From the NCBI RefSeq assembly GCF_001457595.1, contig NZ_LN831039.1, positions 5,640,001 through 5,672,000 of the forward strand: a stretch of DNA of 32,000 bases. The letters run 5' to 3'. The position numbers and the translations under genes were made by a program. Positions 6,348-10,050 of this stretch are shown in pieces (position 1 is the first letter of the stretch; every line of letters begins with the position of its first letter). Source of the DNA: Mycolicibacterium smegmatis (GTDB lineage: Bacteria > Actinomycetota > Actinomycetes > Mycobacteriales > Mycobacteriaceae). A model generated the notes under the pieces. The model had not been told where the DNA came from and did no database searches. It worked only from the letters and a program-made list of their open reading frames with translations.

Positions 6348-6371
6348 GTTTCCTGCGCGCATACTTGGGTA
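6348..6371 (+). promoter_or_regulatory. Candidate SigF-type promoter upstream of the CheB-like gene
   Basis: GTTT (6348-6351), a 15-nt spacer, then GGGTA (6367-6371). This matches the mycobacterial SigF consensus as I recall it (GTTT-N15-17-GGGTA). It lies 23 nt before the ATG at 6394, with the G-rich SD gcgggggg between them. Confidence 0.4.
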
Positions 6372-6393
6372 ACAAGAGCCCGCGGGGGGCGAT

Positions 6394-7407
6394 ATGACAA
6401 ATTTCGATTCAAAGCACGGGGTGGTCGCGATCGGCGCATCGGCCGGTGGTGTGGAAGCGTTGACTCGGTTGGCTGCCAACCTGTCTCGCGATCTTTCCTA
6501 TGCCGTCGTGGTAGTCCTCCACATGCCTGCCAATGCACCCAGCGTGCTGGCCAGAATTCTCGATCGCGCAGGGCCACTCCCGGCGGTCACCGCTGTCGAC
6601 GGCGCCTCCCTGGAGGCAGGCACGATCCACGTCGCCCGGCCCGGCCGCCACCTGATGGTGCACGACGGACACGTCGTGCTCAGCGAAGGACCCACCGAGA
6701 ACGGGCACCGTCCCGCGGTGAATGCACTTTTCCGATCGGTCGCGCTGGCGTAGGGCCCACGTGTGATCGGCGTCCTGTTGTCGGGGGTGCTCGACGACGG
6801 TGTTCTCGGTGCCGCGGCCATCAAGAGACGCGGCGGGCTGGTGATCGCGCAGTCGCCGACAGACGCGCTGTTCCCCGCGATGCCGACGAACGCCATGCAT
6901 GCCGGGGTGGTCGACCATGTTGCGGACGCGGCCGACATGGGTGGGCTGATAAAGCAGCTGAGCGAGCGGACGATCGAGGAGCGCGACATGGAGCCCGACG
7001 ATTCCATGGAACTGGAGAACCGCATCGCCATGGCCGGCAGGTTCTCGACCGATTTCGATTCCGAGGCGCTCGGTCCCCCCTCCGGTTACATCTGCCCGGA
7101 CTGCAACGGGTCACTGTCGACCGTCAGCGAGGGCAACTTCCGCTGCCGCGTGGGGCACGCCTGGACCGCGGACGCGCTGCTGCGGGCGCGGGACCAGGAG
7201 GTCGAGGGCGCGCTGTGGGTCGCGCTGCGCAGCCTGGAGGAGAAGGCGAAGCTGTCGAGGAAGCTCGCGGAGAAGGCCGGCGCAGGGCTGATGGCGCGGC
7301 GGTATGAAGAACTCGCCACAGAGGCCGAGCACGCGGTGTCGGTGCTCAGTGAACGGCTGGCGGAGGTGGGCAGGCAAGTGGGGGACCTCGGTGACCAGAT
7401 CACGTAG
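6394..7407 (+). pseudogene. CheB-type protein-glutamate methylesterase with C-terminal zinc-ribbon/coiled-coil, interrupted by an in-frame TAG at 6751-6753
   Basis: ORFs 6394-6753 and 6763-7407 share a frame (both are 1 mod 3). The catalytic motifs are intact: GASAGG (Ser), VLHMP (His) and LSGVLDDG (Asp). The reading is ...FRSVALA*GPRVIGVLLSG. Downstream there is CPDCNGSL...FRCRVGHAW. Confidence 0.85.
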
Positions 7408-8152
7408 TCCGATCACCATCTCGGTCACCTCCCGCGGCGAGATCACCCTGCTGACCGTCGACGGTGTCCTGGACAGCACCACGTACCGCGAAGTGCGCGA
7501 CACGGTGATCAAAGCCGCGTTGTCCGAACCGCGCGCGGTGGTGGTCAACGTCAGCAGGCTCGTGGTCCCCACCGAAACGGCGTGGTCGGTGTTCACCAGC
7601 GCCCGGTGGCACGTGTGCGTGTGGCCGGATGTCCCGGTGTTGCTCGTATGCGATCATCAGCAGGGTCGTGCCTCCCTATGGCGCAACGGAATTCAACGCT
7701 ACGTTCCGGTGTGCTCGACACTGGACGAGGCGTGCGCGACGGTGCTCGCCGATCGCATGAGCCCACTGCGCCGCCGAGCGCGCGCGCATCTGCCCGCCGT
7801 GCACTCCAGTGTTCGACGGTCGCGGGAATTGGTCACCGACTGGCTGCTCAACTGGTCGCTGACCAAATACATCCCGGTGACCTGCGTGGTCACCGACGCC
7901 CTGGTGGAGAACGTCCTGGAGCACACCCTGAGCGCGCCGAAGATCATGCTCGAGAACCGAGGTGACACCGTCAGCATCGCCGTGGAGGACGAGAGCCCGG
8001 CACCGGCGGTACGTCACGAGGATCCCTACCGTGGCGGCGGCAGGTTGTCGGGCCTGGCCCTGGTGGCCAGCATCGCCCGGTCCTGGGGTTGCACACCGAC
8101 CACGACCGGAAAAACGGTTTGGGCGCTGATCGGTCCCGAGAGTTGCTTCTGA
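7391..8152 (+). CDS. Fusion of a STAS (anti-sigma-antagonist) domain and an RsbW/SpoIIAB-like HATPase (anti-sigma kinase) domain
   Basis: The N-terminal half reads ITISVTSRGEITLLTVDGVLDSTTYREVRD...VVVNVSRLVVPTETAWSVF (STAS-like). The C-terminal half reads SSVRRSRELVTDWL...DALVENVLEH (N-box-like)...SIAVEDESPAP...GRLSGLALVASIARSWG. I chose the GTG at 7391 as the start. It overlaps the CheB-like stop by 17 nt, and there is no in-frame ATG nearer the domain. Confidence 0.65.
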   Translation: MTRSRSPITISVTSRGEITLLTVDGVLDSTTYREVRDTVIKAALSEPRAVVVNVSRLVVPTETAWSVFTSARWHVCVWPDVPVLLVCDHQQGRASLWRNGIQRYVPVCSTLDEACATVLADRMSPLRRRARAHLPAVHSSVRRSRELVTDWLLNWSLTKYIPVTCVVTDALVENVLEHTLSAPKIMLENRGDTVSIAVEDESPAPAVRHEDPYRGGGRLSGLALVASIARSWGCTPTTTGKTVWALIGPESCF

Positions 8153-8199
8153 CCGCTAGTAAGGTCACAGTCGCGACACACCGCGGGCGATGGGATGAG

Positions 8200-10050
8200 A
8201 TGGAACAGGCCGACGAATCGTTCGAAGCACTGCTGCGCTACATGCGTGACTCGCGTGGGTTCGACTTCACCGGTTACAAACGCACATCGTTGATGCGCCG
8301 CGTGCGGCACCGCATGGACCAGGCGGGTCACGACACGTTCGAGGAATACCTCGACGTATTGCAGGCCAGTTCCGACGAGTTCTCGGCGCTGTTCAACACG
8401 ATCCTCATCAACGTCACGGCGTTCTTCCGCGATCCGGAGGCGTGGGAGTTCATCCGCAGTGACGTGATCCCGCGCATGCTCGCCGAACGCGGACCCGACG
8501 ACCCCATCCGGGTCTGGAGCGCCGGTTGCGCGTCCGGGCAGGAGGCGTAGACGCTGGCGATGCTGCTCGCCGAGGCGCTCGGACCCGACGCCTTCCGTCA
8601 GCGCGTCAAGATCTACGCCACCGATGTCGACGAGGACGCGCTCACCGAGGCACGCGCCGCCTCGTACGACGCGAGAGCCGTCGAATCGGTGCCGCCGACG
8701 CTGTTGTCGACGTACTTCGAACATGTCAACGGCCGCTACGTCTTTCACAAGGACCTGCGACGCGCGGTGATCTTCGGCCGCAACGATCTGGTGAAGGACG
8801 CACCCATCTCGCGGGTCGACCTTCTCGTGTGCCGCAACACGCTGATGTATCTCAATGCCGAGACACAGCGAAACGTCATCAGCCGCTTGCACTTTGCGCT
8901 CGGGGCACAGGGGACGCTGTTCCTCGGCCACGCCGAGATGCTGCTGAGCCATGCCGACCGGTTCGCGCCGCTGAACCTCAAGCACCGGATCTTCCGCAAG
9001 GCCGCGGGGTCGCATTCAGGCATCGAACGTTACGACCCGACCGCCGCGATGTACGACCGTCACGGCGACCTGCCCGGGCTCACCACGGTGCGGGACCTGG
9101 CCTTCCGCGCCAGCCCTGTCGCGCAGATCGTGGTGACCGGCGAGGACACCGTCGCGATGATCAACCAGCAGGCCGAGTCCATTTTCGGGCTCTCGGCCCG
9201 AGACATCGGGCGTCTGCTGCGCGACCTCGAGATCTCCTACCGGCCGGTCGAACTGCGCGCCTACATCGAGCAGTGCAAGGTCGAGCGCCGATCCGCTCGC
9301 ATCCAGGACGTGAAGTGGCAGCGTCCTGGCTCGGAGACCGTGTGGTTCGAGATTCACGTGAACCCACTCGTGGACAACGAGAACGGCTTGCTCGGTGTGT
9401 CCATCGTGTTCTTCGACGTCTCGGCCACCCGCGCGCTGGTCGACAAGGTTGTCCAGACCAACCGCCAGCTCGAGGCGGCCTACGAGGAACTGCAGTCCAC
9501 CAACGAAGAGCTTGAGACCACCAACGAGGAACTTCAGTCGACGGTGGAGGAACTGGAGACCACCAACGAGGAACTCCAGTCCACCAACGAAGAACTCGAG
9601 ACCATGAACGAGGAGTTGCAGTCCACCAACGACGAACTGCACACCATCAACGACACGCTGCGTGACCGCAGCATCGAACTCGAGGACGCACGGACCTTCC
9701 TCGATTCGATGGTGAACTCGATCCAGCTGGGGATGGTGGTCGTCGACCGCGAGATGCACGTGGTGGTGTGGAACCGGCACTGCGAGGACCTGTGGGGTCT
9801 GCGCGCCGACGAGACCGTGGGAACCCCGTTGACGTCGCTGGACATCGGCCTGCCGCTCGATCAGGTGCGGCCGCTGATCGGGAACGCCTTCGTCGACGCC
9901 GGCGACCCGGGCGAGGTCGTCGTCGATGCGGTCAACCGGCGCGGACGTGCCGCGCGCATCCGGGTCACGTGCGCGCCGTTCCGGTCCCCCGAGGGCGGCG
10001 TGAAGGGTGCCTTGTTGTTGATGGAGGACCAGCTCGCGGCGCACTCCTAG
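8200..10050 (+). pseudogene. CheR-type SAM-dependent protein-glutamate methyltransferase with PAS - heptad coiled-coil - PAS, interrupted by an in-frame TAG at 8548-8550
   Basis: ORFs 8089-8550 and 8560-10050 share a frame. The N-terminus is FEALLRYMRDSRGFDFTGYKRTSLMRRVRHRM (CheR N-domain). The SAM motif reads IRVWSAGCASGQEA*TLAMLL where homologues have GEE(A/P)Y. DLLVCRNTLMYL follows, then two PAS-like segments. The likely start is the ATG at 8200 (MEQADESFE). Confidence 0.85.
9484..9651 (+). repeat. 8 x 21-nt (heptad) tandem repeat encoding [14 protein letters not shown]
   Basis: The units are [49 protein letters not shown] and DELHTIN, read directly from 9484-9651. Confidence 0.9.

Follow-up and report, generated by a model that had tools for sequence, protein, structure and literature searches.

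A cheB–STAS/RsbW-like–cheR operon behind a SigF-type promoter in Mycolicibacterium smegmatis: a candidate methylation-gated partner-switching module with decayed enzyme genes

To our knowledge, the reversible methylation of glutamate by CheR and CheB has been described almost exclusively in chemoreceptor arrays, where it serves as a memory for adaptation. In mycobacteria, SigF controls the stationary-phase and stress responses, and its inputs are partly known. Here, we describe a locus in which the two subjects meet. In a stretch of 32,000 nucleotides of M. smegmatis DNA (contig NZ_LN831039.1, positions 5,640,001 to 5,672,000; hereafter the window), positions 6348–10050 carry this species' copy of a three-gene operon that is old among actinobacteria and lies behind a conserved SigF-type promoter. 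Its genes encode a CheB-type methylesterase, a fusion of a STAS domain with a SpoIIAB/RsbW-like domain (the middle protein) and a CheR-type methyltransferase with PAS domains (CheR-PAS).

The closest described systems each share a part of this arrangement. F7 stage-1 che clusters include genes for anti-sigma antagonists and for a Ser phosphatase (PMC7184735). In the SigF network, the RsbW paralogue RsbW3 depends on SigF and in turn boosts SigF through binding to RsbW1, and Rv1364c is a fusion of sensor, PP2C, GHKL kinase and STAS domains (PMC7693655). Full-text literature searches found no published description of the trio, in agreement with the original prediction, made from the sequence alone, that no characterised system of this kind is known. 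The same prediction held that the window encodes no chemosensory array and that the host is not flagellated. Among the window open reading frames (ORFs) scanned, there is indeed no methyl-accepting chemotaxis protein (MCP), CheA, CheW or CheY, with no MCPsignal match in the trio proteins or in the other ORFs, and the host order has no flagellated members (PMC10746217). A CheR/CheB pair that is found with a partner-switching protein and a SigF-type promoter, and with no flagella or chemoreceptors, points to a different use of methylation.

Layout, promoter and conservation of the operon

Three co-directional frames, with a 17-nt overlap followed by a 47-nt gap, had been predicted, and our coordinates agree with them exactly (Table 1). 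The GC content at third codon positions (GC3) is 0.87–0.88 in the trio frames, and the GC distribution over codon positions backs these frames as coding. Long minus-strand ORFs beneath cheR (8026–9015 and 9016–10044) fail the GC3/GC2 test and were set aside as shadow ORFs.

Table 1. Features of the operon and of the gene next to it, in window coordinates
Feature	Position	Strand	Basis or remark
SigF-type promoter	6348..6371	+	GTTT (6348-6351)-N15-GGGTA (6367-6371), 22 nt 5' of the cheB ATG
cheB-type methylesterase pseudogene	6394..7407	+	Pfam CheB_methylest; catalytic domain is residues 11-184, then tail
In-frame TAG in cheB, codon 120	6751..6753	+	Sequence read; TAC in relatives L002/L003
CxxC-x13-CxxxH zinc-ribbon-like motif, CheB tail	7093..7158	+	C234, C237, C251, H255
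STAS + SpoIIAB/RsbW-like fusion gene, 253 aa, GTG start	7391..8152	+	Pfam STAS, AF2, Foldseek
STAS domain of middle protein	~7412-7747 (residues ~8-119)	+	
GHKL-like domain of middle protein	~7772-8131 (residues ~128-247)	+	
cheR-PAS pseudogene	8200..10050	+	Pfam
CheR_N of cheR-PAS	8218-8367	+	
SAM-binding domain of cheR-PAS	8410-8985	+	
In-frame TAG in cheR, codon 117 (Tyr of WSAGCASGQEAY)	8548..8550	+	
PAS1 of cheR-PAS	~9097-9423	+	
Long helix of cheR-PAS	~9430-9729	+	
Heptad array [ST]TNEEL[QE] x8 in long helix	9478..9648	+	Candidate methyl-accepting segment
PAS2 of cheR-PAS	~9715-10029	+	
GAF-ANTAR gene, convergent with cheR-PAS	10411..11193	-	Pfam ANTAR 1.3e-20, GAF_2 5.8e-16

The SigF consensus of M. 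smegmatis is GTTT-N14-19-GGGTA (PMC4694148). The SigF-like promoter that had been proposed upstream of cheB matches this consensus perfectly and is conserved at that position. Across orthologous loci, G[GT]TT-N14-18-GGGTA lies directly 5' of cheB in 51 of 62, usually ending 22–23 nt before the start, against a background of 1.06% of 140-nt windows in the same loci. A SigF-type motif is also present within 200 nt of the gene at eight of the 14 loci that keep the middle gene alone, and the trio of a distant actinobacterium (loci L087/L088, below) is preceded by GTGT-N15-GGGTA. This comparison is strong evidence for a SigF-type promoter. A scan of 6100–10600 for a sigma-70-type promoter and a terminator gave nothing relevant, and neither did an Rfam scan of the entire window.

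Conservation was analyzed with one genome per species, in which we found 364 relatives of the middle protein. The best 80 of these 364 are all from Mycobacteriaceae and include fast and slow growers. Full-length cheB, the middle gene and cheR follow one another in that order at 48 of the 80 loci, and the middle gene abuts or overlaps cheB. The CheR-PAS orthologues are 81–90% identical in the CheR part and 75–91% in the PAS part, CheB is 63–78% identical and the middle protein 47–62%. The same trio is encoded in a distant actinobacterium of 71% GC (L087/L088), with identities of 47% for CheB, 34% for the middle protein and 61% for CheR-PAS, and the L087 middle protein gives clean Pfam matches to both STAS and HATPase_c_2. 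The synteny of the proposed module therefore extends beyond this strain, across Mycobacteriaceae and to a distant actinobacterium, and the operon is real and old.

The locus has also decayed many times. The middle gene is found alone at 14 loci, and fragments of cheB or cheR are left at several others. In five of the 14 (L008, L029, L045, L052 and L054), where cheB and cheR are deleted, the middle gene directly adjoins the GAF-ANTAR gene, the arrangement that a deletion of cheR would leave behind. The middle protein retains its invariant residues at loci where both enzyme genes are deleted and at the other decayed loci. Loss of cheB is recurrent (M. goodii, M. aquaticum and others). In M. goodii (locus L001, CP012150, 5141–6014), a sister species, cheB is frameshifted in the tail and is not called as a gene, and the middle gene and cheR-PAS are intact; this is an independent loss of the esterase.

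Domains of the three products and the heptad helix

Because the cheB and cheR-PAS frames are each cut by a TAG in the window, the domain searches of both proteins were done with Tyr substituted for the two stops. CheB matches Pfam CheB_methylest (PF01339) with E=1.5e-52, and its catalytic triad S16/H43/D135 is invariant in 53 orthologues. All four Cys/His residues of the CxxC...CxxxH motif in its tail are invariant in the 53 orthologues as well, and this residue pattern suggests a putative zinc site. The motif is followed by a conserved helical segment, to 7404. The tail has no match in Pfam or NCBIfam. A REC domain is likewise not found, as the Pfam and NCBIfam models match only at their C-terminal catalytic part, and the score against the CheB equivalog is 130 bits for a cutoff of 293. 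The original prediction of a CheB methylesterase with a zinc-ribbon tail is thus upheld by the domain match and the invariant motif, with the correction that the frame is interrupted.

A second, divergent CheB-like gene (31–43% identity) is located 3' of cheR-PAS, at ~400–900 bp, in ~36 orthologous loci (L007–L083). It occurs in two forms, one of ~200 aa on the same strand as cheR-PAS and the other of ~250–300 aa on the opposite strand with an Ala/Arg/Glu-rich helical tail. The window does not contain the catalytic part of this gene. A minus-strand ORF of 126 codons (10047–10427) resembles the tail of the second form at 10230–10418, with 46% identity over 65 aa and E=2e-7, a match that has to be read with its low complexity in mind.

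Regarding the middle protein, the STAS domain is recognized by Pfam with 23.7 bits for a cutoff of 22.6, and a profile search matches RsfB and the mycobacterial anti-sigma antagonist 4qtp. For the second half, there is no Pfam match to HATPase_c_2, HATPase_c reaches only E=0.012 (16.5 bits for a cutoff of 26.4), and NCBIfam gives nothing for the protein. Among 18 family members, HATPase_c is matched weakly in 17 and HATPase_c_2 in six, with a best E of 1e-3. The AlphaFold2 (AF2) model of the middle protein has a pLDDT of 84.8. Searched with Foldseek, its N-terminal domain matches SpoIIAA, RsfB and 4qtp (E ~1e-6), and its C-terminal domain matches SpoIIAB (1l0o_A, 1til_E and 1th8_A; E ~2e-4) and the M. 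tuberculosis anti-SigF factor UsfX (8jzt; E ~1e-3). Position 63, at the start of helix α2 of the STAS domain, is Ser in 77 and Thr in three of 82 sequences. In the GHKL-like domain, D200 and K241 are invariant (82/82), and N174 and H178 are kept in 81 of the 82. A SpoIIAB-type kinase is expected to have an N-box with Glu at N-4, the Asn itself and a G1 box of DxGxG. The mycobacterial subfamily lacks the N-4 Glu, with Ala or Val there, and DxGxG, its G1 box being DxSxx; ‘ELVxNxxxH’ is retained in more distant family members. The term RsbW-like is right as a fold, and kinase activity is only putative. In the original prediction the protein was a fusion of STAS with an RsbW-like kinase: the STAS half is supported by its hidden Markov model (HMM) and the SpoIIAB/UsfX fold by structure prediction, whereas the HATPase_c_2 HMM does not match this sequence and the kinase motifs are degenerate. 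The wider STAS–GHKL family consists of ~250-aa proteins with 569 cluster representatives at E <1e-10. Some of its members, such as those in Actinokineospora, have no CheB or CheR neighbours, and the link to CheB/CheR is subfamily-specific.

CheR-PAS contains the Pfam domains CheR (PF01739, 9.5e-53) and CheR_N (PF03705, 8.1e-15), followed by PAS families at residues 300–408 and 506–610. The S-adenosylmethionine (SAM)-binding motifs WSAGCASGxEAY and CRNxLxY are nearly invariant in the orthologues. The basic helix of CheR_N (YKRTSLMRRVRHRM) is also conserved; in chemotaxis CheR, this helix contacts the acidic methylation helix. Pfam finds no output domain 3' of the second PAS domain. The predicted order of CheR, PAS, coiled coil and PAS with nothing after it is thus confirmed by the domain searches, and what it missed is the TAG that cuts the frame. 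PF28159, which recurs on CheR-PAS hits, was discarded as a weak coiled-coil match (CEP89) and not a dedicated family.

The AF2 model of an orthologue (P0291, pLDDT 73) shows a disordered linker after the CheR domain and then a single continuous helix of ~100 residues that joins PAS1 to PAS2. Six of the eight heptads in this helix fit [EQ][EQ]xx[AST][AST], the chemoreceptor methylation consensus, at exact seven-residue spacing (residues 429, 436, 443, 450, 457 and 471), and the six sites are kept in 49 of 59 CheR-PAS orthologues. Residues 421–480 are 97–99% identical over the 59 orthologues and form the most conserved stretch of the operon. Even in the distant L087 protein, the stretch differs only by one Met to Ile exchange, with His481 replaced by Gln just beyond it. 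The underlying DNA is a degenerate tandem repeat of 42 bp × 4.1 (9482–9653) with 69–79% matches. The repeat has been preserved in the protein and has diverged in the DNA, and selection therefore acts on the peptide. These features make the heptad helix a candidate methyl-accepting segment.

Amber codons and strain history

The original prediction described three genes and overlooked two in-frame TAG codons; two of the three genes are pseudogenes here. The cheB stop (GCG TAG GGC) comes after the catalytic His (‘LHMP’) and before the catalytic Asp (‘LDDG’). The cheR stop (GCG TAG ACG) takes the place of Tyr in the SAM-binding motif WSAGCASGQEAY, and this Tyr117 is invariant across the 59 orthologues. 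Two contigs with 98–99% identity to the window carry TAC (Tyr) at both of these positions, with an intact cheB of 337 codons and an intact cheR of 616 codons. Compared with these close relatives, cheB shows ten synonymous and three missense differences, the middle gene 11 and five, and cheR 6–9 and 1–2. As the differences are mostly synonymous, purifying selection acted on the trio genes until a short time ago. In the window, the STAS fusion gene alone is intact, and this copy of the module is decaying.

To place the two stops, we compared the window with other M. smegmatis sequences. By exact protein look-up, the middle protein is identical to ABK75635.1/AFP41840.1 of strain mc2 155, and the CheB fragments of 119 and 214 aa are identical to the proteins annotated in mc2 155 as AFP41838.1 and AFP41839.1. 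These fragments are found on 785 and 579 contigs, respectively. The cheB amber codon is thus common to the window and mc2 155. CheR is intact in mc2 155, with 616 aa (ABK74017.1, also annotated as MSMEI_5400), and occurs in this form on 583 contigs. The split CheR of 116 + 496 aa (CKI33442.1 and CKI33462.1) is found on ~30 contigs, among them one genome of 6.98 Mb, and an independent Logan assembly with the split gene is 100% identical to window positions 5560–13050 (7.5 kb). The 496-aa part of the split gene would start at the ATG at 8560. The mc2 155-type locus carries TAC at the cheR site, and the cheR amber codon is specific to the window lineage. Other M. smegmatis strains have an intact trio (WP_158169660 to WP_158169662).

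Between the window and the mc2 155-type locus (L090), 12 positions differ in 11.85 kb, nine of them in cheR. The window carries the outgroup allele at eight of the nine cheR differences, and the change of TAC to TAG is its sole derived change in the operon. From these alleles, it is likely that cheB was lost first and cheR afterwards, in the window lineage alone. Nine of the 12 substitutions fall within 1.1 kb of cheR (8358–9492), and the mc2 155 type is derived at eight cheR sites, by six synonymous changes together with V181I and M284R. This cluster resembles either a short recombination tract or a burst of local change that followed the loss of cheB. Sequencing error was rejected as the source of the stops, since the same alleles are present in many independent assemblies. 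Engineering with a C-to-G base editor was rejected as well: read by eye, an NGG protospacer-adjacent motif fits the cheB site and none is present at cheR, and the differing phylogenetic ages of the two mutations are at odds with this origin. The strains provide a set of natural mutants, in which mc2 155 is without a working cheB, the window lineage is without cheB and cheR, and other M. smegmatis strains are intact. They also call for caution, as results on SigF signalling in mc2 155 come from a strain with a broken eraser gene.

Proposed mechanism, neighbouring genes and known systems

Methylation-gated partner switching by this operon is a reasonable hypothesis on the sequence evidence. In intact copies, the six EExx[ST][ST] heptads in the CheR-PAS helix would receive methyl esters from the CheR domain of their own polypeptide, and CheB would strip them off. 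The helix is probably a parallel dimer, and the two PAS domains would bias the balance of addition and removal. The STAS/RsbW-like protein would read the state of the helix and feed it into the SigF partner-switching network, and its binding partner there could be an RsbW-type anti-sigma factor or SigF directly; the precedents of RsbW3 and Rv1364c support this last step. As the operon itself would be SigF-dependent in this model, a feedback loop would arise. We assign a probability of roughly 0.3–0.45 to the full model, in which CheR and CheB modify the CheR-PAS helix and the STAS/RsbW-like protein relays its state to the SigF network. A fully self-contained methylation device, made of a CheR that writes on the PAS-flanked coiled coil to which it is attached, a REC-less CheB as eraser and the STAS/RsbW-like protein as a reader that tunes SigF, is possible but doubtful. 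If true, the model would describe a multi-site methyl ‘memory’ that feeds a stress sigma factor, and would give reversible methylation of the chemotaxis type a new output in actinobacteria that are not motile.

Several observations weigh against the full model. The repeated decay of cheB indicates that cells can do without the eraser. The middle protein persists at loci without the enzymes and has family members without CheB/CheR, and it therefore has a function that does not depend on methylation. Its kinase activity is doubtful because the N-4 Glu and DxGxG are absent, and the word ‘kinase’ is not established for it. A constraint on binding or signalling, and not modification, could explain why the helix is so extremely conserved, and an AF2 model of the monomer does not tell if the helix is within reach of the CheR domain. 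The window ORFs scanned include no sigma-factor or PP2C gene. The presumed locus tags of the region, MSMEG_5549–5553, are absent from the main text and the supplementary SigF regulon tables searched of the regulon study (PMC4694148); the pseudogene status of cheB in mc2 155 may have kept the trio off arrays. Finally, with both the writer and the eraser gene cut by an amber codon, there is no methylation gating in this strain unless the stops are suppressed. Such suppression, in which natural readthrough or programmed recoding of both TAGs leaves the module functional here, is very improbable. Both stops are TAG, both are in a GCG-TAG context and in place of an aromatic codon, and the remainder of cheB and of cheR is undamaged. 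However, the window has no tRNA gene, several of its ordinary genes end in TAG, and the relatives encode Tyr by TAC at the two sites. The two TAGs differ in age, the cheB one being common to mc2 155 and the cheR one not, which fits ordinary nonsense mutations. In this strain, the STAS fusion protein can only act without CheB and CheR.

Other wirings of the intact operon have to be weighed on the same evidence. CheR and CheB might modify the STAS/RsbW-like protein, or another partner-switching component, with the helix serving only for dimerization or for transmission between the PAS domains. The middle gene is always flanked by the genes of the writer and the eraser, its translation is coupled to that of cheB, and its product has invariant acidic residues (E173, E210 and E188), all of which fit this idea. 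It is nevertheless unlikely, because the middle protein has no EE or QE pair in a consensus context, is the least conserved of the three and persists unchanged where the enzymes are lost, whereas the helix offers six consensus heptads in a stretch conserved at 97–99%. It is also conceivable, though rather improbable in our view, that the genes are co-transcribed and unwired. The middle protein would then be an independent feedback factor of the SigF regulon, for which RsbW3 is a precedent (PMC7693655). CheR-PAS and CheB would be a separate sensor, the remnant of CheB–CheR–PAS–histidine-kinase fusions minus the kinase. The family members without CheB/CheR, the SigF-type motifs kept at middle-only loci and the JGI label ‘CheB/CheR fusion protein’ for CheR-PAS speak for such separate roles. 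In contrast, the strict order, with overlapping or abutting genes in 48/80 loci and across a divergence of the middle protein to 34% identity, is hard to explain without a functional link, and CheR-PAS has no other output domain. A split histidine kinase, in which the middle protein would use its GHKL domain to phosphorylate His481 of the CheR-PAS helix, can hardly be right, even though the His is present in the helix (NDELHTIND) and the GHKL-like domain is encoded next door. His481 is variable (49 His, eight Gln, one Asp and one Tyr in the 59 orthologues), and on this ground the reading was rejected. In addition, the GHKL domain matches the anti-sigma Ser kinases SpoIIAB and UsfX and not the catalytic domains of histidine kinases, and the operon encodes no response regulator.

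The surroundings of the operon provide its probable locus tags. A KstR operator is described at the intergenic site MSMEG_5554/5555, together with a primer for MSMEG_5555 (PMC1995591). The operator, TTTAGAACACGTTCTAGTGT, has an exact copy at 11200–11219, between the GAF-ANTAR gene (MSMEG_5554, minus strand) and a luciferase-like oxidoreductase gene (MSMEG_5555, 11220–12110), and the primer maps to 11539. These matches identify the GAF-ANTAR gene as MSMEG_5554, so by position the trio is probably MSMEG_5550/51–5553 (MSMEI_5397–5400). The exact operator places genes adjoining the trio in the KstR regulon of lipid and cholesterol catabolism (PMC1995591). The GAF-ANTAR gene follows the trio at many orthologous loci and is missing from the distant L087; it is a conserved neighbour and at most a putative member of the module. 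MSMEG_0586, annotated as ‘STAS domain, putative’ and described as an anti-SigF antagonist (PMC8049324), was considered as the middle gene and rejected, since it is flanked by genes for a CoA transferase and a rhamnose mutarotase and is therefore a different locus.

Further features of the window are apart from the operon. A MalK-like ABC ATPase gene (23599–24648, minus strand) matches only the second half of the ABC_tran profile, with the Walker A half missing. It adjoins an insertion-sequence-type transposase ORF (HTH_Tnp_1, 25382–25756, minus strand), and was probably truncated by the insertion element. An in-frame TAA at 26069 on the minus strand lies between two stretches of high GC3. The LigD gene is full length (21235–23556, minus strand), with primase-polymerase, phosphoesterase and ligase domains. 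On the plus strand, a TGA at 16815 parts two coding-like stretches of the same frame just before an RNase H gene (16818–17381); the stretches may be adjacent genes or another interrupted gene.

Finally, we compared the operon with the known systems. Like the F7 ‘stage 1’ chemosensory clusters of Vibrio and Pseudomonas, it groups cheR and cheB with partner-switching genes (PMC7184735); however, those clusters are full arrays with CheA, CheW, CheY and receptors, none of which the operon has. It also resembles the uncharacterised CheB/CheR fusions with PAS and histidine kinase (KEGG K13924), a name that JGI gives to mycobacterial CheR-PAS, in the architecture of CheR followed by PAS_10/PAS. Unlike in these fusions, cheB is a separate gene, the histidine kinase is absent and a STAS/RsbW-like gene lies between cheB and cheR. 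The heptad motif is probably common to the operon and the fusions that have the kinase. The operon shares CheR_N with the SAM motifs and the CheB triad with chemoreceptor adaptation by MCP, CheR and CheB, and its candidate substrate is an acidic helix in which EExx[A/S/T][S/T] sites recur at heptad spacing, like those of Tar and Tsr. The differences are that the MCP signalling domain is missing from the operon and CheA, CheW and CheY from the window, that CheB is REC-less and that CheR is covalently joined to its presumed substrate, a helix predicted to run continuously between two PAS domains and not as the antiparallel hairpin of an MCP. Similar to Rv1364c, the middle protein fuses GHKL and STAS domains (PMC7693655), although in the order STAS then GHKL, the reverse of that in Rv1364c, with no PP2C or sensor domain and with the N-4 Glu and the G1 box missing. 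The middle protein also resembles parts of the mycobacterial SigF switch (RsbW1/UsfX, RsfA, RsfB, RsbW2 and RsbW3): among solved structures its STAS domain is nearest to RsfB and the mycobacterial antagonist, its C-terminal domain is similar to SpoIIAB and UsfX, and the promoter of the operon, like that of rsbW3, is of the SigF type.

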